Shown piece after piece: positions 1 to 13,664 of a DNA stretch of 13,664 nt. This DNA is from a virus: the UHGV virus genome UHGV-0143428; one strand, written 5' to 3'. A program made the position numbers and the translations under genes. Below the pieces are notes generated by a model. The model was not told where the DNA came from, did not search any database, and worked only from the letters and a program-made list of their open reading frames with translations. The first letter of the stretch is position 1. Every line of letters begins with the position of its first letter.

Positions 1-48
1 CGAGATAGGCTCCGGTCTCGTGGGCTCGGAGATGTGTATAAGAGACAG
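1..48. other. Illumina Nextera P7-side adapter (non-biological contig-end contamination)
   Basis: Bases 1-6 CGAGAT (end of P7), 7-14 AGGCTCCG (8-nt i7 index position; as recalled the reverse complement of Nextera index N720 CGGAGCCT), 15-29 GTCTCGTGGGCTCGG, 30-48 AGATGTGTATAAGAGACAG (Tn5 mosaic end). Genomic sequence begins at base 49. Confidence 0.9.
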
Positions 49-50
49 GG

Positions 51-80
51 CTAGGGAAGGCTAACCTTCCCTAGTTTTTT
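51..80. terminator. Perfect 10-bp inverted repeat (CTAGGGAAGG-ctaa-CCTTCCCTAG) plus T6, immediately downstream of the 355-aa gene stop; terminator-like hairpin
   Basis: Stem 51-60 / 65-74, loop 61-64, T-run 75-80 on the + strand. On the minus strand the U-run side would lie in the adapter-truncated region, so its function for the minus-strand operon cannot be confirmed. Confidence 0.4.
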
Positions 81-81
81 A

Positions 82-1149
82 TTAGATAAGATCTTCCTCA
101 TCATGATCAAAGCCATACTGTAGAGCTTCAGATAGCTCAATTTGCTTATTTAAGTGTAGATTCACTCGAACAGCAATCCATTTAGCTGGACTTCCCATAC
201 CTGCTATATCCCCTATAGCAGCATTTCTTATCATTGCAGCTCCCCAAGAGTCCTCCCTTTGATAATGTGGATACTCTGCCAAAATTGATTTCGCAGCTTC
301 AATGAACCCTTCTTTATTCATCCCAGGGCGGCGCTCGAAATACCATGAATCATTTAACGCTATATCAATTCTAGGAACATATCGCCCAATTATGTTGTCA
401 TACACTACTGAATGAATTGAACCATGATCGCCATAAATAGCGACATCACTTCCACCAATATTTTGATGCAATTCTCTCTCAATAACATCAATATATCCGG
501 ACTGTCCATTTTCACGGCAAAAATTTGTAACTGAACTAGGGAAGCTTGTTGCTAGCACACTAATTATGGCTTCAGGAATCTCAGTTCTAATCTGATTAAT
601 CGAATTTATTGCTGCAGCTGTTATAGCAGATACATTCCCTCTAATGTAGCCCAAATCTATGAAAACTATGGCATTTTCTGGAGAGTTCATCGATACTAGT
701 GACGTCAGGGTTTTATTAATGTCTGTATTTAGATTTCTAATTCTAAATGCAATTGAACCTTTAAGTTCCTCTAAAACCCTGGCTTGGATAGATATATCTC
801 TAAGTTTTGCTGAATCCGGCATCTGGACTACTGGAATAATATTATCATTTCTGGAACAAAACTCTATCCAGTTTTTAAAACCATTCTCAGGAGAGAGTAG
901 TTCGAAGCTTGACGCGCAATGATGAGAATTATCCTTTGTGACATCCAAAATAAATGGGAGATTACTCATCACTTCTAAACTTTTATCTAACGATACCTGT
1001 ATTTCTTCCGAGCGAGGCCATTTCCCCAAAGAAATTAAAGGTAATATTTTTTTCTTATTCTCATATGATAAATTATTCAGTCCGGTCATTTCTGCTGATC
1101 GTGTTCTTAGGGCTGGATAGTATGAGTAATTTTCAAAATATACTTTCAT
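82..1149 (-). CDS. Hypothetical 355-aa soluble protein, distal gene of the hotspot cassette; candidate P4 beta-type protein (unverified)
   Basis: Uninterrupted 355-codon ORF with a GGAGG RBS about 11 nt upstream of the ATG. The start lies 2 nt after the stop of the upstream 133-aa gene (TAA-AT-ATG), indicating translational coupling. About 37% GC versus about 55-60% in psu/alpha. No Walker A or other motif I can recognise by eye. It sits where P4 carries gop-beta-cII, between cos and int. Confidence 0.7.
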   Translation of the reverse strand: MKVYFENYSYYPALRTRSAEMTGLNNLSYENKKKILPLISLGKWPRSEEIQVSLDKSLEVMSNLPFILDVTKDNSHHCASSFELLSPENGFKNWIEFCSRNDNIIPVVQMPDSAKLRDISIQARVLEELKGSIAFRIRNLNTDINKTLTSLVSMNSPENAIVFIDLGYIRGNVSAITAAAINSINQIRTEIPEAIISVLATSFPSSVTNFCRENGQSGYIDVIERELHQNIGGSDVAIYGDHGSIHSVVYDNIIGRYVPRIDIALNDSWYFERRPGMNKEGFIEAAKSILAEYPHYQREDSWGAAMIRNAAIGDIAGMGSPAKWIAVRVNLHLNKQIELSEALQYGFDHDEEDLI

Positions 1150-1151
1150 AT

Positions 1152-1553
1152 TTAATTAGCCTCCGAATCGATATTTTCTGGTCGGCTTGCTGTTCTTGGC
1201 ATAGCGTTAATTTGGGGGTTCTGAGTAGCAAGATAAGCAGCTATACTTTCCATCTTCTCTTTCTGTTCTGAAGTTCTTGCAAGTTCTTTAATCAATTCTT
1301 TGTTTTCAGCCATCAAGTTTTGATTGGATTCATTATGACTCTTGATTACCTCCATATTACTTTTTATAACATTCGTGTGGTTGTTGCTAATTGCTTTAAT
1401 CGTTCTGTGTGTAAACCATCCAATAAGTAAAGCAGCTAACCATCCAGAACAAACGAGCAACCATTGTGAAATATCTTGGTTGCGGATGAAGCTAGTAGCA
1501 ATAGTGATTATGGTCCCAACAACGCCAATTAATCCATATACATGATTCAGCAT
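1152..1553 (-). CDS. 133-aa small membrane protein (two N-terminal TM helices plus charged coiled-coil tail); candidate toxin/effector of the hotspot cassette, possibly gop-type (unverified)
   Basis: Hydrophobic segments at about residues 6-23 (YGLIGVVGTIITIATSFI) and 31-47 (WLLVCSGWLAALLIGWF), followed by a K/E/N-rich helical tail. It is the first gene after cos, transcribed away from cos, and is AT-rich like its partner. Confidence 0.6.
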   Translation of the reverse strand: MLNHVYGLIGVVGTIITIATSFIRNQDISQWLLVCSGWLAALLIGWFTHRTIKAISNNHTNVIKSNMEVIKSHNESNQNLMAENKELIKELARTSEQKEKMESIAAYLATQNPQINAMPRTASRPENIDSEAN

Positions 1554-1780
1554 CCTTTAACTCTCTCATGCCACGAATTCTTAAGGATCTTGCGACACTG
1601 ACAAGAACCACCTTACATCAATCTATTTTTTGCATATTTTTCAGGATAGTGCCATCAAAAAAGACAGTTTTGGACCATAGGCCATAGATTTTCTTCATTA
1701 TGCTCCAATGTATTAACGAGGTATGTACTGAAGGCACTTTGACTACACAAATAATTAACTAACTTGTCGGTTTGCGCGCG

Positions 1781-1799
1781 GTGCTTTCCCCGCCTCGCC
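1781..1799. other. cos site: P2/P4-type 19-nt cohesive end sequence
   Basis: GTGCTTTCCCCGCCTCGCC at 1781-1799 is the reverse complement of GGCGAGGCGGGGAAAGCAC, the cohesive end of P2/186/P4 as I recall it. It is located just beyond the psu stop, as in P4. Confidence 0.8.
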
Positions 1800-1900
1800 C
1801 GCCCGCTTTGCGGGGCGGTTTTAATGCAGTTGCACTGACACGCTCAGACCGCGCCGGGAATGGCGCGGTTTGCAGAAAATGAGGCAGGAAAACGCATGCA

Positions 1901-1934
1901 AAGCCATGCACCTTATCGATGCATGGCTTTTTTC
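1901..1934. terminator. Intrinsic-terminator-like hairpin between psu stop and cos
   Basis: AAGCCATGCA (1901-1910), 9-nt loop, TGCATGGCTT (1920-1929), then a T-run on the + strand. It lies about 30 bp downstream of the psu stop codon (1965) on the opposite strand, so it is possibly bidirectional. Confidence 0.45.
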
Positions 1935-1964
1935 AGTAAAAACAGGCGGATTTTTCGGGGAGTT

Positions 1965-2537
1965 TTACACAGACTGACGTGATGCCAGTTCTGCACTTTT
2001 ACGCGAAAAAATCATGTTCTGCGCAGGGGTGAATTTTTCACGGCTGTCATCCACCGAAGCCGCGTCAGGCCTGAATCCGATGGTCGTTAAAATGTCGCTA
2101 TCCTGTGCGGAATAATTAATTTTTTCCCCCTTCGCAAGCCAGGACAGAAGGGCTTCACGCAGGGCATCTGTGGCACGCTGTATGGCACAGTTTCGGGCAA
2201 TGGCCGTCAGCTCACTGTAGCCCATCAGCTCCGGTGCCAGTGCGGCCGCCAGTGCTGTGCCGTGCTGCTGCATAAAATCATTCAGCCGCTCGCGGATGCT
2301 GATGTGCTGAACGGCTTCATGCGAACGAATATAACGACCGGCGGCCTGATTCACCTGCCATTTTCTGACTTCGATAATATTGCGTAATTCGTCCAGGCGA
2401 CTGACGTTTCTGCCTTCTCCTGACAGAAGCCGCAGATATTCCTGTTCGGCCGCTGCCAGCTCATTTTTGCGTTGCAGCCATGCTGCTTTGTTATTCTGAC
2501 AGGTGTCAAAGGCCTGCTGTAAGGCTGTGCTTTCCAT
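1965..2537 (-). CDS. psu: Psu, polarity suppression / capsid decoration protein (P4-type)
   Basis: 190-aa ORF starting MESTALQQAFDTCQNNK. Length and N-terminus match my recollection of P4 Psu. It is the last gene of the sid-delta-psu operon, adjacent to cos. Confidence 0.85.
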   Translation of the reverse strand: MESTALQQAFDTCQNNKAAWLQRKNELAAAEQEYLRLLSGEGRNVSRLDELRNIIEVRKWQVNQAAGRYIRSHEAVQHISIRERLNDFMQQHGTALAAALAPELMGYSELTAIARNCAIQRATDALREALLSWLAKGEKINYSAQDSDILTTIGFRPDAASVDDSREKFTPAQNMIFSRKSAELASRQSV

Positions 2538-2610
2538 CGTTATCTCTTTCTCATCATGCTGAAGAATAAAAATACGGTGTGCGGCGACGGCCGGTGTTAA
2601 CCGGCAGCCC

Positions 2611-3111
2611 TCATTCCAGACGCAGCGAATATGATTGTGTTTTTAACCGTACTGGCGGCAGTTCCTGTTTTTCATGCAGGCGTTCTGCCAGTTCGTCCGG
2701 CGTGACCGGGCGGACAATGAAGCGGTTGATGGTCTGAAGCGTTTTAAACACCAGACCACAGCCCGGATCCGTGCACACATAAAAACGCTCGGTGACTTCC
2801 TGAGACAGACGCCGCGATGTTCTTGACAGTGCAAGGCCTTTACATCTCCGACAACAATATCCGGTAACAAGCATTCTTTTCGGGCGTTTCATACCGCAGG
2901 AGGCTGACGTCAGTGAATCGCGGTATCTCTGTTTGCCTGAAATGTATTCCATTCCTGAATCTTTACTGTCAGAGAAAAAGCTTTCACTCGCTTCAAATGT
3001 CGCAGAGCAATAAATATTCCGGCACTGTGCAATCATTATCTTGGTGCCATCGTCCATGAAATGTGCGCGACGGGTGTGAGCAACATGTCCACACGACGGA
3101 CAGTAAATCAT
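2611..3111 (-). CDS. delta: Delta, late-gene transcriptional activator (tandem Ogr-type zinc-finger protein)
   Basis: 166 aa. Two Ogr-like Cys4 units (CPSCGH...CRNIYC near the N-terminus, and CCRRCKG...CTDPGC in the second half). Its start overlaps the sid stop (ATGA). Length matches P4 Delta as recalled. Confidence 0.85.
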   Translation of the reverse strand: MIYCPSCGHVAHTRRAHFMDDGTKIMIAQCRNIYCSATFEASESFFSDSKDSGMEYISGKQRYRDSLTSASCGMKRPKRMLVTGYCCRRCKGLALSRTSRRLSQEVTERFYVCTDPGCGLVFKTLQTINRFIVRPVTPDELAERLHEKQELPPVRLKTQSYSLRLE

Positions 3112-3842
3112 GACAGCAGCCCTCTGGCCTTAAGCTCTGCTCCCTGCTGGTCTATTTTGTCCTGCCACACCTTGCGCTGTGCCGGTGTGCCTGCCACCTC
3201 ATAATCCATGTGCGGGAGTGTTGCCGCTGACAGTCCGGTCAGCCGGAGAACCGGCTCGCCGGTGAGGCTGATTTGCATCTGTTTAATTTTCTGTTCCAGC
3301 GATGATTTCACCTGCTGCATGACAGCCTTTTCCGGTGCGACGTAGCCCTGATGGCCGGTGGTGTTGGCGAGCGGATTTTCCTGTACCAGAATGCTCAGAT
3401 GCATTGCCCGGACAAGCGCCTCACAGGTTTCATTCAGGGCGTGTTCCAGCTCATGCTCTGCATACAGACTCAGAAGGTGATGATGTGCCTTCCGGTAGGC
3501 GGTGGCCGTGCTGTCACACGCCCCTTTCAGGCGTTCACGTTCGAAATTCAGCACCACGGCCAGATTGTCATATTCCTGTACCAGCTCCCGGCGTGCCACG
3601 CGCTCAATGTGGCGCTGTTTCAGCTCGTCGCTCAGGACACCACCGGCTGCACGAAAGGCCGTGCGCCAGTCGTCAGCGTCGTTTCCGTCGGCCTGCGCCA
3701 GCGCATTTTTTTCCTGCTCTGCCCGTTCAATGGCCGTGACGGTCTCATCCATCAGGCGGGCGTTCTCAAGATGGGCGGCTCTGGCCTTTTCCAGTTGTGC
3801 CAGTGCGGGTTGCAGATATTCAGGGATAGTGTGGTCAGACAT
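3108..3842 (-). CDS. sid: Sid, capsid size-determination (external scaffold) protein
   Basis: The ORF is open from 3860, but the GAGGAG RBS sits 8 nt upstream of the internal ATG at 3842 (MSDHTIPEYL...), giving 244 aa, the P4 Sid length as recalled. It is a helical, Q/E/A-rich protein and the first gene of the late operon. Confidence 0.85.
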   Translation of the reverse strand: MSDHTIPEYLQPALAQLEKARAAHLENARLMDETVTAIERAEQEKNALAQADGNDADDWRTAFRAAGGVLSDELKQRHIERVARRELVQEYDNLAVVLNFERERLKGACDSTATAYRKAHHHLLSLYAEHELEHALNETCEALVRAMHLSILVQENPLANTTGHQGYVAPEKAVMQQVKSSLEQKIKQMQISLTGEPVLRLTGLSAATLPHMDYEVAGTPAQRKVWQDKIDQQGAELKARGLLS

Positions 3843-3914
3843 TTTCCGGCTCCTCGTCACTTCAGGTTAAGAAAATTGTGACGTACACCGGACAACAACA
3901 CGACGCATTGCAGA

Positions 3915-3932
3915 TGTGCCAGCCCTGACACA
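3915..3932 (-). promoter_or_regulatory. Candidate Delta/Ogr binding dyad (TGT-N12-ACA) of the sid late promoter
   Basis: TGTGCCAGCCCTGACACA. Its centre is about 80 bp upstream of the sid ATG, which would place a transcription start about 25 nt upstream of the ATG if the dyad is centred at -55, as in P2/P4 late promoters. The motif is short and could occur by chance. Confidence 0.3.
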
Positions 3933-4011
3933 GGAGACTCATCCTCAGACCGGCAAGCCAGGAAAAGGTCGCAGGAAAAACCGGCTTACTGTTTGTTTTT
4001 TTATATTTTAC

Positions 4012-4116
4012 TGTTCACCTCTGTTCACCTTAATAAAAAAGATAAGTAATACAGTAAGTTAAAGGGTGAACAATCGCAGTAATGACTGTTCACCGTCTGT
4101 TCACCACTGTTCACCC
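4012..4116. repeat. Iteron cluster (TGTTCACC octamers), ori-like alpha-protein binding region
   Basis: Direct copies of TGTTCACC at 4012, 4022, 4087, 4098 and 4109, and one inverted copy (GGTGAACA) at 4065. Flanked by AT-rich tracts. P4 alpha binds iterons of this type in ori and crr (recalled). Confidence 0.75.
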
Positions 4117-4219
4117 GTTGATGGGCTTTTTGTGCTGTTTACTACTGTTTGTTTTTATTAATTCGCCGGGAATGAATAAGAAGAAACGATTTGTATTTCA
4201 CTATAAAAATTACAAATTG

Positions 4220-4249
4220 CTTTAAGTGGCTTTAAATGACTTTAAGTGG
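4220..4249 (+). promoter_or_regulatory. Helically phased triple CTTTAA repeat / duplicated TTTAAGTGG upstream of vis (candidate operator/promoter element)
   Basis: CTTTAA at 4220, 4230 and 4240 (exact 10-bp phasing). TTTAAGTGG at 4221-4229 and 4241-4249. It is located about 150 bp upstream of the vis start in an AT-rich region. Confidence 0.35.
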
Positions 4250-4394
4250 AGATGAACAAAAAACACACAGCCATTGTAAGGCAGCCTGAACAAATCCCCC
4301 CTGTTGCGTCTGCTGAAAATATTCACAAAATAAAGCGCTACCCGAAGCCGGACGGACTTATCCGGTGCTGTATGGACATTAACGAGGTAGCCCG

Positions 4395-4661
4395 ATGCAA
4401 GCTGTTTTTTCTTCCCCGTCTCCCGCCCCAGTGACGCCACTGATGCCGCTGCCGGACATCACGCAGGAGCGTTTTTTACGTCTGCCGGAAGTGATGCACC
4501 TGTGCGGCCTGTCACGCTCGACCATCTACGAACTCATCCGTAAGGGGGAATTTCCGCCGCAGGTGAGTCTTGGCGGTAAAAATGTGGCCTGGCTGCACTC
4601 TGAAGTCACCGCATGGATGGCCGGGCGCATTGCCGGACGCAAACGGGGGTACGACGCATGA
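4395..4661 (+). CDS. vis: Vis/AlpA-family excisionase-type transcriptional regulator
   Basis: 88-aa ORF with the AlpA-family signature ([32 protein letters not shown]). GAGGT RBS 8 nt upstream of the ATG at 4395. An internal start at MPLPD cannot be excluded. Confidence 0.75.
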
Positions 4662-5059
4662 TGATGCCCGCTCTGCAAAAACTCCCTTTTTCTGGCTTGC
4701 CTTTTTCCGGCATTTGCGGATATAGTTTTTCCGCTGCCGCAAAATCGGCAGCCGGGCGTGAGAACCCGAGCAATTCACAGGCGACATATGACGCGCCACG
4801 CGTCTTTTTTTGTGTCGCAATCAATGCCACAGAGCGCCAGATTATGGTGTGGTGTGTGGTCAGTCGTGCAGATGGCATTCCGTGCATCCTGCCCGCGTCC
4901 GCTCATTATGCCGCAGAGTCAATGGTAGCTCAGGCGGGGCAGCCTCCGGGCTGGCCGGTATCCGTTAGAGCCGGTATTCTCACCCCCGTCTGGGCTATCG
5001 CCATCGAGCGTGAGAACTCCGGCGATAGCGTTATTTGCTATTCACAGGAGGCTGCCATC

Positions 5060-5257
5060 ATGGCTACAACCCTTACCCCCTCACACCCTGAATTTGTCTT
5101 TGTGTTTGCGGCTGTCCGTCGCGCAGACCGTCATCCCCGTATCTGTATGCTTCGCACCGTCGCCGGTGATGAACGCAGTGCCCGCCGTTCCCTTGTCCGT
5201 GACTATGTGCTCTCCCTTGCTGCCCGTCTGCCGGTGGTGGAGGTGTCCCGTGCGTAA
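5060..5257 (+). CDS. Small hypothetical protein (65 aa) of the leftward operon, translationally coupled to the epsilon-like gene
   Basis: An internal ATG at 5060 within the long 4613-5257 reading frame is preceded by AGGAGG 7 nt upstream. The stop overlaps the GTG start of the next gene. The upstream part of the long ORF is more likely RNA/leader. Confidence 0.4.
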
Positions 5258-5537
5258 TAAAAAAGCCCCTCAGACCGTCTCAGCGCGTCATGACGCCCGT
5301 GAACACCTCAGCATTGAGGCTTACCATAAGCTCAACCGCGCCAGCGCCGTATCCCGGTTTGTTGGGGGTGATTTGATTCACCGTGAACTCTCCGGCCTGC
5401 ATCAGCTCTACATTCCGCATATTTTCAGCTACCTGAATGAAGATATTGATTTTGTGCTGAATGAGCTGAAAGCCAAAGGCCTGTGCCGCGATTTTCTCGC
5501 CCAGCAGAAAGACCGGGGAGACAGGACGCATGTTTGA
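5250..5537 (+). CDS. Epsilon-like protein (P2-derepression factor position), about 95 aa, GTG start
   Basis: GTG at 5250 preceded by GGAGGTG 5-6 nt upstream, in frame through the stop at 5535-5537, which overlaps the ATG of the orf151-like gene. Size and position relative to orf151/alpha match P4 epsilon as recalled; the sequence identity is not verified. Confidence 0.5.
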
Positions 5538-5985
5538 TTTTCCCCAGCCCGGTGAGATTTACCGTTCTGCCGGTTTTCCCGATGTGGCCGTGGTCGGCAT
5601 TCTGGAAGACGGTATTCCGTGGGAAATGCCGTACCGCTGCCCGGACATTGTCTGGAACCCGTACCGCCGTAAATTCAGTATCCTTGTGCGTATCCTCGCT
5701 GACGGACGCACCACAGACATCCCGCTGGGGCGTTTTCTGCGGGAATTTACCTGTGACCGTCCTGACCTGTTTAAACGCAGCCCCGTAAACCGGCATTCGG
5801 TACTGAAAGAAATGGCCGGAGACCCGGAATTACAGAAATGGCGGGAAAAATATCTGGATATTTACCCGCAGGACACTGTTCCGGTCAGCCGGGCAGCACC
5901 GGTGGCGCGGGAATGGCGGGAAATTCCCCGCACGGAGCCTGACCCGGAAACCACCCCGGATAACAGTTACCGCAATTATCTGTAA
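5530..5985 (+). CDS. orf151-like protein (151 aa) of the alpha operon
   Basis: Exactly 151 codons. Its ATG overlaps the upstream gene's stop. It lies upstream of alpha, as does P4 orf151. Confidence 0.65.
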   Translation: MFDFPQPGEIYRSAGFPDVAVVGILEDGIPWEMPYRCPDIVWNPYRRKFSILVRILADGRTTDIPLGRFLREFTCDRPDLFKRSPVNRHSVLKEMAGDPELQKWREKYLDIYPQDTVPVSRAAPVAREWREIPRTEPDPETTPDNSYRNYL

Positions 5986-6120
5986 TTAAAAAACGACCCC
6001 CGAAAAATTAAATGTGCGTATTCGCGCAGGGATACGCACGTCTTCAGGAGACGCAGATATGCCTTATCAGTTAATGCAACCGGCACGGAATGCAGTCATC
6101 TGTCACAGGGAGAAAAGCAA

Positions 6121-6441
6121 ATGAAAACACCCTTACCGCCCGTCTTACGCGCTGCCCTTTACCGTCGCGCTGTCGCCTGTGCCTGGCTGACCGTGTGCGA
6201 ACGTCAGCACCGCTACCCGCATCTCACCCTTGAATCACTGGAGGCGGCCATCGCCGCTGAGCTGGAAGGCTTTTATCTGCGCCAGCACGGTGAGGAAAAA
6301 GGGCGCCAGATAGCCTGTGCCCTGCTGGAAGATTTAATGGAATCCGGCCCCCTGAAGGCCGCGCCGTCGCTGTCCTTTCTCGGGCTGGTTGTGATGGATG
6401 AACTCTGTGCCCGTCACATAAAAGCGCCGGTACTGCACTGA
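6121..6441 (+). CDS. Hypothetical 106-aa protein immediately upstream of alpha
   Basis: ORF with a GGGAGA RBS, ending 14 bp before the alpha start. Preceded by a 21-codon upstream ORF whose TGA overlaps its ATG. Confidence 0.55.
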
Positions 6442-6455
6442 AGGAGAACAACACC

Positions 6456-8789
6456 ATGAAAATGAACGTAACCGCCACCGTCAGCCATGCGCTCGGCCAC
6501 TGGCCGCGTATTCTCCCGGCGCTGGGGATTCAGGTGCTGAAGAACCGTCATCAGCCCTGTCCGGTCTGTGGCGGGAGTGACCGTTTCCGTTTTGATGACA
6601 GGGAGGGGCGCGGCACCTGGTACTGCAATCAGTGTGGTGCCGGTGACGGCCTGAAACTGGTTGAAAAGGTGTTTGGTGTTTCCCCGTCCGACGCGGCCGC
6701 AAAGGTGGCTGCCGTGACCGGCAGCCTGCCACCGGCTGACCCGGCAGTGACGACCGCCGCCGGTGCTGAAACAGACGCTGCCCGGAAGAACGCCGCCGCA
6801 CTGGCACAAACCCTGATGGCGAAAACCCGTCCCGGAACCGGTAACGCCTACCTGACCCGCAAGGGCTTTCCCGGCCGGGAATGCCGGATGCTGACCGGCA
6901 CACACAGAGCCGGTGGCGTGAGCTGGCGCGCCGGTGACCTTGTGGTGCCACTGTATGACGACAGCGGCGAACTGGTTAACCTTCAGTTAATCAGTGCTGA
7001 CGGCCGTAAGCGCACCCTGAAAGGCGGGCAGGTCAGGGGCACCTGTCACATCCTTGAAGGACAGAATCAGGCCGGAAAACGTCTGTGGATAGCGGAGGGA
7101 TACGCGACCGCACTTACCGTGCATCACCTGACCGGTGAAACGGTGATGGTGGCGCTTTCTTCCGTGAACCTCCTTTCTCTGGCCAGCCTTGCCCGGCAGA
7201 AGCATCCGGCCTGTCAGATTGTCCTTGCCGCAGACCGTGACCTCAGCGGTGACGGCCAGAAAAAAGCCGCCGCAGCCGCAGATGCGTGTGAGGGCGTTGT
7301 TGCCCTGCCGCCGGTCTTCGGTGACTGGAATGATGCCTTCACGCAGTACGGCAGGGAGGCCACCCGTAAGGCCATTTATGATGCCATCCGGCCACCGGCT
7401 GAAAGCCCGTTCGACACCATGAGCGAAGCGGAGTTTTCCGCCATGAGTACCAGCGAAAAGGCCATGCGTATCTATGAGCATTACGGCGAGGCGCTCGCGG
7501 TCGATGCCAACGGCCAGCTTCTGTCCCGCTATGAAAATGGTGTCTGGAAGGTGCTGCCACCACAGGACTTTGCCCGGGATGTGGCCGGGCTGTTTCAGCG
7601 TCTGCGCGCGCCGTTCTCCTCCGGGAAGGTGGCCTCCGTGGTGGACACCCTGAAGCTGATTATTCCGCAGCAGGAAGCCCCCTCCCGCCGCCTGATTGGC
7701 TTTCGTAACGGCGTGCTCGACACGCAGAACGGCACGTTCCACCCGCACAGTCCGTCACACTGGATGCGCACCCTGTGCGATGTGGATTTCACCCCGCCGG
7801 TGGACGGTGAAACGCTGGAGACCCACGCCCCCGCGTTCTGGCGCTGGCTTGACCGTGCCGCCGGTGGCCGTGCGGAAAAACGCGACGTGATTCTGGCCGC
7901 ACTGTTTATGGTGCTGGCAAACCGCTACGACTGGCAGCTCTTTCTGGAGGTGACCGGTCCCGGCGGCAGCGGCAAAAGTATCATGGCCGAAATAGCCACC
8001 CTGCTGGCCGGGGAGGATAACGCCACGTCGGCCACCATTGAGACGCTGGAATCCCCGCGTGAACGTGCCGCGTTAACTGGCTTCTCACTGATACGCCTGC
8101 CGGACCAGGAAAAATGGAGCGGCGACGGTGCCGGACTCAAGGCCATCACCGGCGGCGATGCGGTGTCCGTTGACCCGAAATACCGGGATGCGTACTCCAC
8201 GCATATCCCGGCGGTGATTCTGGCCGTGAACAATAACCCGATGCGCTTCACCGACCGCAGCGGCGGCGTGTCACGCCGGCGGGTGATTATTCACTTCCCG
8301 GAACAGATAGCCCCGCAGGAGCGCGACCCGCAGCTTAAGGACAAAATCACCCGCGAGCTGGCGGTCATCGTGCGTCACCTGATGCAGAAGTTCAGCGACC
8401 CGATGCTCGCCCGGTCACTGCTTCAGTCCCAGCAGAACTCAGACGAGGCGCTGAACATCAAACGGGATGCCGACCCGACGTTTGATTTTATCGGCTATCT
8501 GGAAACCCTGCCGCAGACCAGCGGCATGTATATGGGGAACGCCAGTATCATCCCGCGCAATTACCGTAAATACCTCTATCACGCCTATCTGGCCTACATG
8601 GAGGCAAACGGCTACCGGAATGTACTCAGTCTGAAAATGTTCGGGCTGGGGCTGCCGGTGATGCTGAAGGAATACGGACTGAATTACGAGAAGCGCCATA
8701 CCAAACAGGGGATACAGACCAACCTGACGCTGAAAGAGGAAAGCTACGGCGACTGGCTGCCAAAATGTGACGACCCTACAACAGCCTGA
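6456..8789 (+). CDS. alpha: Alpha protein: bifunctional primase-helicase with C-terminal origin-binding domain
   Basis: 777 aa, the P4 alpha length as recalled. N-terminal zinc motif CPVCGG...YCNQCG, TOPRIM-like EGYATALTV and LAADRD, Walker A GPGGSGKS at 7951-7974, and Walker-B-like acidic residues. AAGGAG RBS 8 nt upstream of the ATG. Confidence 0.9.
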   Translation: MKMNVTATVSHALGHWPRILPALGIQVLKNRHQPCPVCGGSDRFRFDDREGRGTWYCNQCGAGDGLKLVEKVFGVSPSDAAAKVAAVTGSLPPADPAVTTAAGAETDAARKNAAALAQTLMAKTRPGTGNAYLTRKGFPGRECRMLTGTHRAGGVSWRAGDLVVPLYDDSGELVNLQLISADGRKRTLKGGQVRGTCHILEGQNQAGKRLWIAEGYATALTVHHLTGETVMVALSSVNLLSLASLARQKHPACQIVLAADRDLSGDGQKKAAAAADACEGVVALPPVFGDWNDAFTQYGREATRKAIYDAIRPPAESPFDTMSEAEFSAMSTSEKAMRIYEHYGEALAVDANGQLLSRYENGVWKVLPPQDFARDVAGLFQRLRAPFSSGKVASVVDTLKLIIPQQEAPSRRLIGFRNGVLDTQNGTFHPHSPSHWMRTLCDVDFTPPVDGETLETHAPAFWRWLDRAAGGRAEKRDVILAALFMVLANRYDWQLFLEVTGPGGSGKSIMAEIATLLAGEDNATSATIETLESPRERAALTGFSLIRLPDQEKWSGDGAGLKAITGGDAVSVDPKYRDAYSTHIPAVILAVNNNPMRFTDRSGGVSRRRVIIHFPEQIAPQERDPQLKDKITRELAVIVRHLMQKFSDPMLARSLLQSQQNSDEALNIKRDADPTFDFIGYLETLPQTSGMYMGNASIIPRNYRKYLYHAYLAYMEANGYRNVLSLKMFGLGLPVMLKEYGLNYEKRHTKQGIQTNLTLKEESYGDWLPKCDDPTTA

Positions 8790-8837
8790 CCCACCTGACC
8801 GGCATCTGCCGGTCTTTTTTTATCCCGACATCCCCCG

Positions 8838-9115
8838 AAGGTGAACAATCCACTGTTCACCCTTCACCGTATATTCACCCGTTATCACACTGAAATTAAA
8901 AGAGAAAAACGAAAGGTGAACAGTGTGAACAATCAAATCAAAAAAAACTTTTTTCTTCCTGAGTGATTTCAGTGCGGAGGATTAATCACCGGTATGAGTC
9001 ACACCGGCAGAATGCCGGAGGTGAAGAATCGAATGTTCACCCTTCACCCATTATTCACCACCTATCACTCTGAAATAAAAGGAGAAAACAGAAAGGTGAA
9101 CAGTGTGAACAGTTC
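8838..9115. repeat. crr-like cis replication region: two ~97-bp direct repeats (about 85% identical, period 180 bp) each carrying several iterons and followed by an A-run/T-run block
   Basis: Repeat A at 8838-8934 and repeat B at 9018-9114. Each contains GGTGAACA, TGTTCACC, CTTCACC, ATTCACC and the terminal GAAAGGTGAACAGTGTGAACA. A7/T6 tracts follow at 8938-8954 and 9120-9136. Confidence 0.75.
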
Positions 9116-9326
9116 TTTCGAAAAAAAATTTTTTATGTGGATAAAAGATGCACTGGTTTGGATCCGAGCTACGGATCCAAACTTACTGATTAAAAATGAT
9201 TTAACTTTCCGATTTATTGATGGGCTGAAAATAGATTGGTCAGAAAAACAGTGGGGGCACAAAAGGGGGCATATTTCATTGTTGTGTTTTATTATTTGTT
9301 TTTTATCATTAACTTATTTTGATGTT

Positions 9327-9346
9327 TGAGTCCGGCCTTCGCACCA
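9327..9346 (+). other. att core: 20-bp copy of a tRNA 3' end (T-arm/acceptor/CCA), tRNA-Leu (leuX)-like
   Basis: TGAGTCCGGCCTTCGCACCA matches, with one missing G, the 3' end of E. coli tRNA-Leu(CAA) as I recall it (..TTCGAGTCCGGCCTTCGGCACCA). Upstream sequence is AT-rich and not tRNA-like, so this is a core repeat (attR-type) rather than a full tRNA gene. Confidence 0.6.
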
Positions 9347-9359
9347 AAAGTATGTAAAT

Positions 9360-9384
9360 AGACCTCAACTGAGGTCTTTTTTTA
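9360..9384 (+). terminator. Rho-independent terminator (tRNA-type terminator on the chromosomal side of the att core)
   Basis: AGACCTC (9360-9366), loop AACT, GAGGTCT (9371-9377), followed by T7 (9378-9384). Confidence 0.7.
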
Positions 9385-9459
9385 TGCCTGAAATCCAGTG
9401 TTTATCTATCTTTCCCGCTATATTAACTCTCTCAAGGTCAACCGATATCAACGTACATC

Positions 9460-9477
9460 TACCAACATATGTTGGTA
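9460..9477. promoter_or_regulatory. 18-bp perfect palindrome TACCAACATATGTTGGTA in the integrase promoter region, plus a third half-site
   Basis: Perfect dyad at 9460-9477. An additional TACCAACA half-site at 9511-9518 lies just upstream of the int RBS (GGGAGGG). Candidate Int arm-type or repressor site. Confidence 0.45.
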
Positions 9478-9531
9478 CAGATGATGGTATTTCCGGTTCG
9501 ATAATGCTTGTACCAACAGGGAGGGAATACG

Positions 9532-10797
9532 ATGGCATTAACAGATATCAAAGTCAGAGCAGCCAAGCCAACGGATAAGCAATATTAGCTGACTGATGGT
9601 GGCGGTATGCATCTGCTTGTCCATCCAAATGGTTCTAAGTACTGGCGTTTGCAGTACCGTTATGAGGGAAAGCAAAAAATGCTGGCACTTGGGGTTTATC
9701 CTGAAATCACACTAGCGGATGCCAGAGTACGTCGTGACGAGACGCGTAAGCTGCTTGCGAATGGCGTCGATCCGGGAGACAAAAAGAAAAATGATAAGGT
9801 TGAACAGAGTAAAGCACGAACCTTTAAAGAAGTCGCGATTGAGTGGCATGGCACCAATAAAAAGTGGTCTGAAGATCACGCCCATCGTGTGCTAAAAAGT
9901 CTTGAAGATAATCTTTTTGCAGCGCTTGGTGAACGTAATATCGCTGAGTTAAAAACTCGAGATTTATTAGCACCTATTAAGGCCGTAGAAATGTCTGGAC
10001 GTCTTGAAGTGGCCGCTCGTCTTCAGCAGCGCACTACAGCCATCATGCGCTATGCAGTGCAAAGTGGGTTAATTGATTATAACCCGGCACAAGAGATGGC
10101 TGGGGCGGTTGCTTCCTGTAATCGACAACATCGTCCCGCGCTTGAATTAAAGCGCATCCCTGAGTTGCTTACAAAAATAGATAGCTATACTGGTAGGCCG
10201 CTAACCCGATGGGCGATAGAACTCACTTTGCTGATCTTTATTCGGTCCAGTGAGCTGCGTTTTGCTCGTTGGTCAGAGATCGATTTCGAAGCGTCTATAT
10301 GGACTATCCCACCGGAGCGGGAGCCTATTCCTGGAGTGAAACATTCCCATAGAGGCTCAAAAATGCGTACAACGCATCTAGTGCCTCTTTCAACGCAAGC
10401 TCTTGCAATTTTAAAGCAGATAAAACAGTTTTATGGGGCCCATGACTTGATATTTATTGGTGATCACGATTCGCACAAACCCATGAGTGAGAATACGGTA
10501 AATAGTGCGTTACGGGTCATGGGGTATGATACAAAAGTAGAGGTTTGTGGTCATGGCTTTCGAACAATGGCCTGTAGTTCATTGGTCGAATCAGGTCTGT
10601 GGTCTCGTGATGCTGTTGAACGTCAGATGAGCCACATGGCGCGAAATTCAGTGAGGGCCGCGTATATCCATAAAGCAGAGCATCTGGAAGAACGGCGATT
10701 GATGCTACAGTGGTGGGCCGATTTTCTGGATGTAAACAGAGAAAGGTTTATCAGTCCATTTGAATATGCAAAGATTAATAATCCATTAAAACAGTAA
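9532..10797 (+). pseudogene. int: P4-family tyrosine integrase with an in-frame amber codon at codon 19 (N-terminally disrupted; 396-aa ORF remains from an internal Met)
   Basis: ATG at 9532 with RBS encodes MALTDIKVRAAKPTDKQY, then TAG at 9586-9588, then in the same frame LTDGGGMHLLVHPNGSKYW... This is the conserved P4-type integrase N-terminus interrupted by a stop. The downstream ORF 9607-10797 carries the integrase catalytic region (R..H..R..Y type C-terminus). Confidence 0.8.
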
Positions 10798-11197
10798 TCA
10801 TCCCGGGCAAATGCCCGGGAATTATTCTAGGATTATTTTCTTTGTTAAAAAAGACAAACGGTATTAACTGATGTATTTACTATTTACCGCTCCCTGCAGG
10901 GGGGATTATCAGAATCCGCGGTTATTCATTATTTATATACATTCAATAAAAAAGTAACCTCATAAAAAATCCTGTACTCACAGGGTGATGCGGGATAACT
11001 GACGTAAGGAGTGCTGCAGGGATTTGATGGTCCCTTGTGCTGATATGAATACGGATATTTTATACAGAATACTTTTCAGTACAAGCGACTGTATTACAGT
11101 CTGCCATATATGATTACCTGTGATCAGGAAGAATAAGTGGCTGAGGTTTCAAACTGTCTGCCGGTATATTCCTCTCTCCCTTAAAAACCATAACAGG

Positions 11198-12420
11198 TTA
11201 GTTATCTTCGTCTGTCAGCGGATTGAATGGCGGTATATTTTCAGTACAAATACCGGTCATCCACTGAAAAATACCTGCGAAATGACGGGCACTGATTTTT
11301 CTACTGACGGGCTGATGAGACGTTATGTCACTGGCGGTAATAATCAGTGGCACACTGTAGCCTCCCTGCACATGACCATAATGATGAACAGGATTGGCAC
11401 TGTCGCTGACCGACAGCCCAAGGCCAGAAAAGTAAAGCATGGCGAAATGACGTGAGTACCGGCGAAGGATACCATCAAGCTGGCCAAGAAAGTTATCCAG
11501 TTTACTGATGCTGGCGAGGTAACAGGCAATTTTTCGGGGATACTGCTCCAGGTAATTATTCGGCTAGGAGTTAAGGCTGTCACACGGATTTGGATGAGAA
11601 CCCATCATGTGCAGGAAAATTATCTTCGGAGAGGATGTATCCGCCAGCGCACGTTCTGTTTCCTGTAACAACAGTTTGTCATCTGTTTTACGGGAAGCGA
11701 AGCTGCCTTTCTTGAGGAAAGTGGCATGCTCCGCATCAGAAGCAATAACAGAGATGCGTGTGTCATGCTCCCCCAGTTTTCCTTGATTGGATATCCACCA
11801 TGTGCTGTATCCTGCTTTTGCTGCCAGCGCCACCACATTGTTGCCGGAATCAGGGTTCTGCTCATAGTCATAAATCAGTGTCCGGCTCAGGGAAGACACT
11901 GTACTGGAGGCTGTCGAGGTATAATCGTCAATAAATAAACCGGGTGCCGTATTCAGCCACGGTGTGGTTGGTACGGGATAGTCATACACTGACATATAAT
12001 CCCTGCGCACACTCTCACCAGTGACAATAACAATCGTATCATATAACGGTGCTCCCGGCTGGATTTTCCAGTTGTCAGCCCCGTGCTACTCAGTTGTTCA
12101 TAACGCTGCATTTCACGTAATGTGTCAGTTGTCCCCACAACTGTTCCTTTAACCATCCGCAATGGCCAACGGTTTACAGAGCATAATACGAATAGCCGTA
12201 GAGCCAGCCAGTTACGGTGGTCGCGATGGTGTGTCCGCCAGAAAATCACCACGAATACCAGAATCGCGGCACTGACCAGAAAATGATAAACAGGAAACAC
12301 GGGGCGGTTCACTTTGCTTTCTCCTGTAGTGTTTTCTGTAGGTTCTGAACCGGTTCTAGCGGGGTTGTGAGGCTGATGGCAATCGCCGGGCTCTTCCTGC
12401 ATGTTACACTGGTACTGCAA
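11198..12420 (-). pseudogene. Frameshifted sulfatase-family (phosphoethanolamine-transferase-like) membrane protein pseudogene
   Basis: Adjacent minus-strand ORFs in different frames: 11953-12420 contains a hydrophobic TM segment; 11564-12010 contains sulfatase-type motifs (RRDYMSVYDYPV, FLHMMGSHP); 11344-11583 and 11198-11440 continue in other frames. Boundaries are approximate. Confidence 0.5.
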
Positions 12421-12780
12421 GAGGGGGCCTTCGCTCCTCTGACATTACTCAGTATTTTCACTACTACACCCCATCTGCCATCCATAACAACCGATTCACC
12501 CCCTCGCGAGGCGTTGTTGCCCGTCACCCGGACAGACACCGTTATGGACTTCTCTTGTTGCACGATCGATCAATTGTTATGCATGCTGACACCACAACCC
12601 CGGTGGGTATGACCGATGCCTTTCTCACTCTCTTCCCGGTCATCGTCGGCCTTCCCCGTTATTGTGGCGTGTCAGCACCCTCGACGGCATTTCGATGGCT
12701 GCTCAGTGTTCACTCACGTTACGGCCCGCATAACCCGTTGACTTCCTGAAGAAGTCGTTTCAGGGAGAGATTCAGCCCTT

Positions 12781-13110
12781 TTGTTACCTCCTGGACCGCT
12801 TCTTGTCCTTCCAGTCGGAGCGAGAGTTAGCCGGGGCGGACTTTCACCGACGGAAAGATCGTGCATTTCAAGGCACACACAACAATATCTGCGAGCGTGC
12901 TATCCGTCCGGTCGTTATGGGACGAAAGGCCTGGTTGTTCGCTGGTTCACTGGTGGCCGGGAACCGCGCGGCACAGATAATGAGCCTTCTGGGAACCGCA
13001 GTCTGGAGCCACATGCTTGGCTGACGGACGTCCTGACGCGTCTGCCGGAGTGGCCGGAGGAGAGGTTGGCTGAGTTACTGCCTCTTGAGGGCTTTACCTT
13101 CTTCGGGTAA
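12781..13110 (+). mobile_element. IS66-family transposase 3' remnant (C-terminal about 100 codons, frameshifted, lacking the DDE domain)
   Basis: Frame 1 (12803-13024) reads NNICERAIRPVVMGRKAWLFAGSLVAGNRAAQIMSLLGTA; frame 2 (to 13110) reads PHAWLTDVLTRLPEWPEERLAELLPLEGF. Together these are the conserved IS66 TnpC C-terminal block, split by a frameshift near 12990-13020. No upstream catalytic region is present. Confidence 0.6.
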
Positions 13111-13614
13111 GTGATACCTGCCGTCAGGTGTTTGTGCACCGGGCCATAACCTGCAGTTGGGAATTGAACGCCTGACAACAGGAAATGAGCTAGAGCAGTA
13201 AACACGCGGGCTGACAATGGGTCAGAATATGAGTTAGCCCGGCGTTATTCCTGGGGTCAGTACTTCAGATCTAGCCTCCGGTACCAGACTAGCTAGCCCC
13301 TACGCAACCAAATAAATCAACCATCGTCAGAGTGCAATCGTTCATATACACTGTCGGTGATGCGCTAAAAAATGCGTTAATGTTGAGTTCCTCGAACCCT
13401 TACCAATTAAGGGACATAGCCAGATACGCAACTGGCTGATGCAAGCAGTCTAATGTCTTTAGATCCGCTGGCCTGCGGGCATGACAATGTCAAACAGTCA
13501 AAGATTGTGGCGTTGACGGTCAGTCTTGGGGACAAAAAAGCTCAGTATTCTCGTTGGCAACCAGATAATTTAACAGTTGATGCTGAAACGAAATAGGCAT
13601 CTTGGTTCTGTAAT

Positions 13615-13647
13615 GCCAGTCAGTTAAGCAACTGACTGGCTCTTTTT
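13615..13647 (+). terminator. Strong rho-independent terminator with no upstream ORF over 60 codons
   Basis: GCCAGTCAGTT (13615-13625), loop AAGC, AACTGACTGGC (13630-13640), then TCTTTTT (13641-13647). Confidence 0.6.
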
Positions 13648-13664
13648 CGGGGCTGTGGGGTATT

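Follow-up and report, generated by a model that had tools for sequence, protein, structure and literature searches.

Short repeats that lie in both arms of an attachment site, distinct from the core and bound by a separate N-terminal domain of the integrase (Int), are known from phage lambda, where they are called P1, P2 and P'1-P'3. Arm-type repeats in the attP site of P4 are already established, as are autoregulated int promoters (Pint) that overlap attL. At KplE1, IntS represses a Pint overlapped by attL, with the P'1 site at the −10 position, and Leu-tRNA loci are predicted to be mostly of this overlap type (PMC2951348). P4 Int represses Pint, the Int of pathogenicity island (PAI) I536 represses its own promoter, and in strain 536 PintII shows, on average, almost no activity (PMC7286903). 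The integrase of PAI II536 is active, and in experiments it excises and integrates specifically at leuX (PMC3202238). Here we examined virus genome UHGV-0143428, a stretch of 13,664 nucleotides (hereafter the window), which carries an 18-bp palindrome and further copies of its half-site upstream of a disrupted integrase gene. We put the probability at roughly 80% that the four 8-mers at 9460-9518, which we designate P'1 to P'4, are P'-arm arm-type binding sites of IntB, the PAI II536-type integrase of an island at leuX. This assignment, made on sequence grounds, draws on the positions of the sites, their conservation, the concerted switching of their motif and their presence in both arms, all of which were observed directly.

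A perfect 18-bp palindrome and a third half-site had been claimed for the promoter of this integrase gene from the sequence alone, and both are present: the palindrome, TACCAACATATGTTGGTA, occupies exactly 9460-9477 and the further half-site lies at 9511-9518. Together with one mismatched copy they make up four 8-mers, 114-172 bp right of the core (Table 1). The mismatched copy, P'3, and the right half of the palindrome are exactly 12 bp apart, and the match of P'4 extends to 10 bp, TGTACCAACA (9509-9518) being the reverse complement of 9470-9479. Of 1,000 first-order Markov simulations of the window, 62 contained a perfect palindrome of 18 bp or more, so that the palindrome taken alone is marginal. 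This frequency of about 6%, and the dead gene next door, favour an accidental palindrome, or a relic that has neither function nor a sequence-specific role. Against such an explanation, all three exact occurrences of the 8-mer in the 13.6 kb fall within 59 bp, the half-sites are invariant across 34 species-level loci, and the motif, as described below, is exchanged as a set in sister lineages and found again in distal P arms. We therefore regard an origin by chance, or a relic of this kind, as highly improbable.

The comparison across loci came from a scan that took one genome per species and yielded 80 Enterobacterales loci, with integrases 75-100% identical and all beside leuX (single loci are cited by our L numbers where they have to be told apart). 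The loci fall into three integrase lineages, of which lineage A, with 34 loci, is that of the window. Conservation of the palindrome upstream of homologous integrases had been suggested as a check, and in lineage A it was borne out at the level of the half-sites, which are invariant in 33-34 of the 34 species-level loci; P'3 is kept as TGATGGTA in all 34 and P'4 is conserved in 32. The central dinucleotide of the palindrome varies, being GA in 14 loci, CA in 12, TA in four, GT in three and AG in one. Given that the half-sites are fixed while the centre varies, the palindrome appears to be two separately read 8-mers rather than a single 18-mer.

Upstream of int the loci share a fixed layout consisting of two tandem 8-mers with a 12-bp period, a block of about 21 bp (ccggTTCGATAATgcttg) and an inverted 8-mer before the ribosome-binding site (RBS). 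Across the three lineages the 8-mer changes in all of its copies together. Tandem copy 1, tandem copy 2 and the inverted copy read TGTTGGTA, TGATGGTA and TACCAACA in lineage A; TGAGTATA, (T/C)GAGTATA and TATACTCA in lineage B (about 31-34 loci); TG(C/T)GGGTA, TGCGGGTA and TACCCACA in lineage C (about 9-11 loci); and TGGGGGCA, TGGGGGCA and TGCCCCCA in P4. Measured rightward from the core GGCCTTCG, the P' tandem pair starts at 136 bp in lineage A, 137 bp in lineages B and C, and 127 bp in P4. P'1 is found in lineage A only, the homologous position being empty in lineages B and C and in P4.

The layout is expanded at one locus, L043 (Serratia sp. PL17, about 1416-1460), where a 12-bp duplication has produced three tandem copies (TGTTGGTAcagaTGTTGGTAcagaTGATGGTA) beside a truncated int. 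This duplication shows that 12 bp is the modular unit of the tandem array.

Changes in the 8-mer are matched by changes in the integrase. Within lineages all three Int domains are about 90% identical, and between lineages the most diverged domain is the one that binds the arms: lineages A and B are 64% identical in the arm-binding domain and 90% in the catalytic domain, B and C 66% and 84%, and A and C 77% and 84%. The arm-binding domain of P4 Int is only about 50% identical to that of lineage A. Each lineage also has its own arm-domain signature, KQYKLTDG.GMHLLV ... YWRLQYRF in lineage A, KEYSLVDGDGMFLLV ... YWRFRFRF in lineage B and KAYKLTDGEGMVLLV ... YWRLRYRF in lineage C. Site sequence thus co-varies with the cognate arm-binding domain, each of the three lineages and P4 having an 8-mer of its own, a pattern that fits a switch of arm specificity in which the common leuX core specificity was kept.

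The distal arm provides a test of this reading, because arm-type sites, unlike an operator, should recur there. The P arm of the island is not visible in the window, where the DNA left of the core belongs to P4, and intact islands elsewhere were used instead. Escherichia coli SJ7 has an intact lineage-A int, the same four-site P' arm and a far-end core repeat 34 kb from int; in its P arm TGTTGGTAtctgCGTTGGTA starts 83 bp left of the far-end GGCCTTCG. In a BLAST search with the SJ7 P arm, 1,677 E. coli genomes proved to have a related P arm, with flanks that are mostly about 73% identical. All seven of the P arms inspected (SJ7 and six sampled loci, representing three sequence backgrounds and including loci L092-L098) carry TGTTGGTA twice with a 12-bp period at 83 bp. 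PAI II536 has TGTTGGTAtctgTGTTGGTA about 102 kb from int and 83 bp from its right-hand repeat. The lineage-B P arm, on Salmonella contig OX345619.1 (L089), has TGAGTATAcatgTGAGTATA at 84 bp, and P4-type P arms have TGGGGGCA twice at 82 bp in ten loci, the window included. The motif thus occupies both arms in all the lineages that could be examined, and its spacing from the core is conserved. Among the ligands that the sequence-only reading had considered, an integrase with arm-type sites is accordingly the one that the comparison favours, given that the 8-mer tracks the arm-binding domain and is repeated in tandem in the P arms of intact islands.

Viral and plasmid collections were searched as well. 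All four matches obtained when viral contigs were scanned for an excised attP of a lineage-A element are P4-like satellites beside a lineage-A int. Matches in the plasmid collection proved to be chromosomes, or contigs mislabelled as plasmids, one of which (L089) supplied the lineage-B P arm given above. Two of the loci are tandem arrays. In L096 (E. coli TW10573) the P arm and core belong to lineage A, and the P' arm and int that come next belong to lineage B. In L089 (4208-4500) the P arm and core are of lineage B and precede a fifth lineage, which has an A-like arm-binding domain and A-like sites, TACCAACC ga TGATGGTG taac TGATGGTA ... GTACCAACA.

The same comparisons bear on the proposal that an excisionase or repressor uses the palindrome as its operator, in the form of a dimeric helix-turn-helix (HTH) regulator or recombination directionality factor (RDF) of the AlpA/Vis/Xis type controlling int. 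Operators of dimeric HTH proteins typically combine a perfect dyad with a central dinucleotide that varies, P4 Vis and KplE1 TorI down-regulate their int genes, and small HTH proteins are encoded in intact lineage-A islands, for example by a 68-aa gene in SJ7. However, the dyad is absent from lineages B and C and from P4, which retain the tandem-plus-inverted layout; the 8-mer forms a direct tandem pair in the distal P arm at a P4-like distance from the core; and changes in the motif go with changes in the arm-binding domain of the integrase. In addition, a search of the island segment in the window, which was not exhaustive, identified no RDF gene. An operator of this type is therefore unlikely, and this part of the original suggestion did not hold up in the sister lineages.

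These observations allow us to propose how the four 8-mers would act as arm-type sites. By analogy with the lambda, P4 and KplE1 systems, Int would bind them, the N-terminal arm-DNA-binding domain of each protomer docking on the P' sites and also on the tandem 8-mer pair in the distal P arm. The C-terminal domains would bind the leuX core, bridging arms and core into an intasome for integration or excision.

The gene downstream of the sites is intB of the chromosomal island and not P4 int. The sequence-only reading had the integrase as disrupted, and rightly so: a TAG amber codon at 9586-9588 replaces codon 19, within the arm-DNA-binding domain, where orthologues have Lys, and the annotated ORF of 396 aa restarts at 9607. 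This change from AAG to TAG is the sole lesion that we saw in intB. In supE amber-suppressor laboratory strains, read-through of codon 19 is expected to give full-length IntB. When the amber codon is counted as Lys, IntB shares 97% identity with the PAI II536 integrase. It has the Pfam domains Arm-DNA-bind_3, Phage_int_M and Phage_integrase, with the arm-DNA-binding domain (PF13356) spanning residues 3-87 (E=1.2e-27). Residues 1-94 match the arm-type binding domain of the HAI7 integrase, 3JU0 (E=2e-37), and 3JTZ (E=3.5e-22), matches which indicate that the DNA-reading module of IntB is of that solved type.

The identity of the gene follows from the layout of the locus. P4 (X51522) matches the window from 48 to 9346 at 99.4-99.5% identity, wrapping through cos, and positions 1-47 of the window gave no P4 match. 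The match stops at the annotated attP core, where P4 position 4078 corresponds to 9346. From 9324 rightward the window matches E. coli chromosomal DNA that lies downstream of leuX, the tRNA gene (the K-12 intB or KpLE2-type island). A P4 prophage has inserted in leuX directly adjoining an older leuX island, and the window shows its right junction, a composite attR made up of the P4 P arm, the core and the P' arm of the older island.

Given this arrangement, Int or Vis of the adjoining P4 prophage might be thought to bind the repeats as part of the P4 attR or regulatory region, the repeats lying only 114-172 bp right of the core that P4 uses. However, the arm repeats of P4 itself are of the GGGGGCA type and lie in P4 DNA (9250-9273, and beside P4 int in the phage). 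Within the window they begin 82 bp left of the core GGCCTTCG and differ in motif from the sites at 9460-9518. Moreover, the TACCAACA region is unchanged in genomes without P4, and the divergence of the P4 arm-binding domain from that of lineage A, given above, also speaks against such binding. With intB rather than P4 int downstream, neither P4 Int nor P4 Vis is the ligand to be expected. The reference to Vis in the sequence-only reading is not supported, and binding of the repeats by either P4 protein is, in our estimation, very improbable.

The arm-type assignment has consequences for the control of int. The tRNA gene and int share the same orientation, and the core, the leuX terminator, the sites at 9460-9518 and the int ATG follow one another in that order. 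Because the terminator blocks read-through from leuX, the int promoter has to fall within the roughly 146 bp from about 9386 to 9531. Between P'3 and P'4, the hexamer GATAAT (9500-9505) is a candidate −10 element of this promoter. A weak genomic SELEX (systematic evolution of ligands by exponential enrichment) peak for RpoH holoenzyme, obtained with a low-resolution method, has been reported at 4494638 in the leuX-insC spacer (PMC5493296). The sites take up the one stretch in which the int promoter can lie, so that autorepression is probably a second function of theirs, and the autoregulation of int suggested from the sequence alone is plausible. In this mechanism, the P' sites would flank and overlap the candidate −10 and the expected transcription start, and Int that occupies them, as in the analogous systems, would probably also repress int transcription. 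In U00096.2 coordinates, the SELEX peak would presumably fall about 126 bp past leuX, at the palindrome (about 9472). The earlier claim that the regulatory architecture is retained beside the disrupted gene is confirmed.

A different role in the expression of int would be that of an RNA hairpin, the palindrome folding in the int 5' leader and causing premature termination or attenuation. A 7-bp stem with a 4-nt loop is possible, and P4 int expression reportedly involves premature termination or degradation, with short int transcripts in lysogens. However, no run of T follows the palindrome, the corresponding position in lineages B and C and in P4 could not form a hairpin, and compensatory changes are absent, because the half-sites never vary. 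If the candidate −10 is correct, the palindrome moreover lies upstream of the transcript. A leader hairpin therefore seems a very unlikely explanation.

Table 1. Features around the leuX core and the start of intB in the window
Feature	Position	Strand	Remarks
P-arm repeats of P4 itself, AGTGGGGGCACA and AAAGGGGGCATA	9250-9273	+	X51522 4151-4174, 'attP arm sequence repeat'
att core copy, TGAGTCCGGCCTTCGCACCA	9327-9346	+	Matches leuX 3' end; junction of P4 and leuX island
leuX rho-independent terminator	9360-9385	+	Hairpin and T-run; present in all loci, two alleles
P'1, putative arm-type site, TACCAACA	9460-9467	+	Left half of palindrome; inverted relative to P'2 and P'3
P'2, putative arm-type site, TGTTGGTA on + strand	9470-9477	-	Right half of palindrome; unit 1 of 12-bp tandem pair
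P'3, putative arm-type site, TGATGGTA on + strand (TACCATCA on minus)	9482-9489	-	One mismatch; unit 2 of tandem pair
Conserved block, TTCGATAAT	9497-9505	+	Between tandem and inverted sites; kept in every lineage; P4 equivalent TTCGATTAG
P'4, putative arm-type site, TACCAACA	9511-9518	+	Inverted; abuts RBS
RBS of intB, GGGAGGG	9520-9526	+	Conserved in lineage A
intB, pseudogene of P4-family tyrosine integrase	9532-10797	+	ATG at 9532; Pfam domains

Other features of the P' arm were recorded alongside the sites. To their left, the block AAGGTCAACCGAnnTCAACGTACATC (9434-9459) is partly kept in the three lineages (aagtcaacc...tcaa...acatc) and is a candidate site for an accessory factor, either an RDF or a host bending protein. 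The integration host factor (IHF) consensus WATCAANNNNTTR has no match in 9347-9531 or in the homologous regions. A direct repeat, D2 (9440-9454 and 9540-9554), was considered as a further pair of sites and rejected; its second copy codes for LTDIKV, a conserved motif, and the repeat is not retained in the other lineages. The leuX terminator lies right of the core in DNA supplied by the island, and its main alleles are gacctcaactgaggtc and gacgtcaacggacgtc, with rarer variants. Which allele a locus carries (9360-9385 and homologous positions in L003-L082) is independent of its integrase lineage, a pattern suggestive of recombination inside the P' arm.

At the core itself, attR-type secondary copies nearly always read CCTTCGCACC, with a single G (window 9334-9346, L018, L029, L059, L061, L065, L074, L084, L091 (rc 34189) and L092-L098), as against CCTTCGGCACC in the copy at the tRNA gene and in the record of phage P4. 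SJ7 and L092 have an 8-mer, CTTCGCAC, in three to four tandem repeats at attR. The single-G cores and these repeats may reflect a crossover boundary or slippage. The island DNA is otherwise 99.8-99.96% identical to K-12 through a phosphoethanolamine-transferase pseudogene, and 10798-13664 aligns to K-12 pseudogene DNA. The IS2 element found just after intB in K-12 DH1 (L083) is absent from the window (11033-11038).

Several points weigh against the arm-type assignment, or limit its reach. Within lineage A the entire stretch 9425-9525 is highly conserved, and not the sites alone, so that the discriminating evidence comes from the comparison between lineages, which comprises only four or five independent lineages. 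The left half-site, which makes the palindrome, is confined to lineage A. A consensus scan of 9250-9700 found no sigma-70 promoter, no convincing −35 element is conserved, and the overlap of the sites with the int promoter is one that we infer. K-12 DH1, ET565 and Ec42 have no distal repeat or P arm within 39-50 kb, and no distal att repeat was found for the lineage-C island of OkiPb01697; the lack of a distal att repeat in these four genomes indicates that their islands have decayed. The system in the window is itself a relic, with an amber codon inside the arm-binding domain and a left arm replaced by the P arm of P4, and its sites cannot be functional in this genome. We found no published binding or expression data for these particular sites. 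Our coverage of the literature, which is incomplete, also yielded no account of the TGTTGGTA sites found in the PAI II536/IntB lineage, or of concerted motif switching among leuX elements, and we know of no explicit description of the arm-type sites of PAI II536.

Arm-type sites of the kind most likely present here beside leuX are an ordinary feature of genomic-island elements, and in the window they survive next to a broken integrase gene. With respect to annotation, the gene is intB, which corrects the impression of a P4 int promoter. The K-12-type intB locus of E. coli is a decayed copy of the PAI II536-type module, whose integrase drives the mobility of a classic pathogenicity island of uropathogenic E. 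coli. The analysis supplies a map of putative recombination sites for this type of leuX integrase, with four P' and two P sites in a fixed geometry. The comparison across lineages amounts to a natural experiment on the re-coding of arm-binding specificity, and it may be of use in engineering orthogonal integrases that share one attB.

A more speculative extension, which we think possible but rather doubtful, is that competitors for the leuX core, among them the P4-type satellites and no fewer than three or four lineages of islands, have co-diversified their arm 8-mer and Int arm domain while core specificity and arm geometry (within 1-2 bp) were kept. Co-resident elements would in that case be orthogonal in recombination, and the extra inverted half-site, added in lineage A alone, would strengthen autorepression by Int and not recombination. 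If correct, this would explain the tandem arrays of P4 and intB in the window, of lineage-A and lineage-B islands in TW10573, and of lineage B and the fifth lineage in Salmonella.

Among known systems, PAI II536 of uropathogenic E. coli 536 has a four-site P' arm identical to that of the window save for the centre of the palindrome, which is CA there and TA here. The window differs in the amber codon 19 of its int and in that it does not include the distal end of the island, which is also absent from the K-12-type relatives checked. In lambda the P' sites are in tandem, like those described here, but the arm-binding domain belongs to another Pfam family, and lambda int is not transcribed from within attL, so that the lambda sites form no operator. 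The attP/Pint region of P4 (X51522; Pierson & Kahn 1987; Piazzolla et al. 2006) has an integrase of the same family, the same leuX core, a P-arm tandem pair with a 12-bp period about 82 bp from the core, a P' tandem pair with an inverted copy near the int start, and a conserved TTCGAT block between the tandem and inverted copies. It differs in its 8-mer, TGGGGGCA as against TGTTGGTA here; in lacking the fourth, inverted copy and hence the palindrome; in the position of its inverted copy, which overlaps the ATG whereas that of the window precedes the RBS; and in a further annotated repeat inside int, of which we found no equivalent in intB. The HAI7 and high-pathogenicity island (HPI) integrases, whose arm domains have been solved (3JU0, 3JTZ/3RMP; Szwagierczak et al. 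2009), belong to islands that target other sites and motifs. Finally, KplE1 at argW, with IntS and TorI (Panis et al. 2010, PMC2951348), has an integrase of another subfamily and other site sequences, and its negative autoregulation through an arm-type P' site at −10 was demonstrated by mutagenesis and reporters, whereas here we infer it; it nevertheless shares with the leuX locus a tRNA gene and int in the same orientation and, probably, an attL that overlaps the int promoter.

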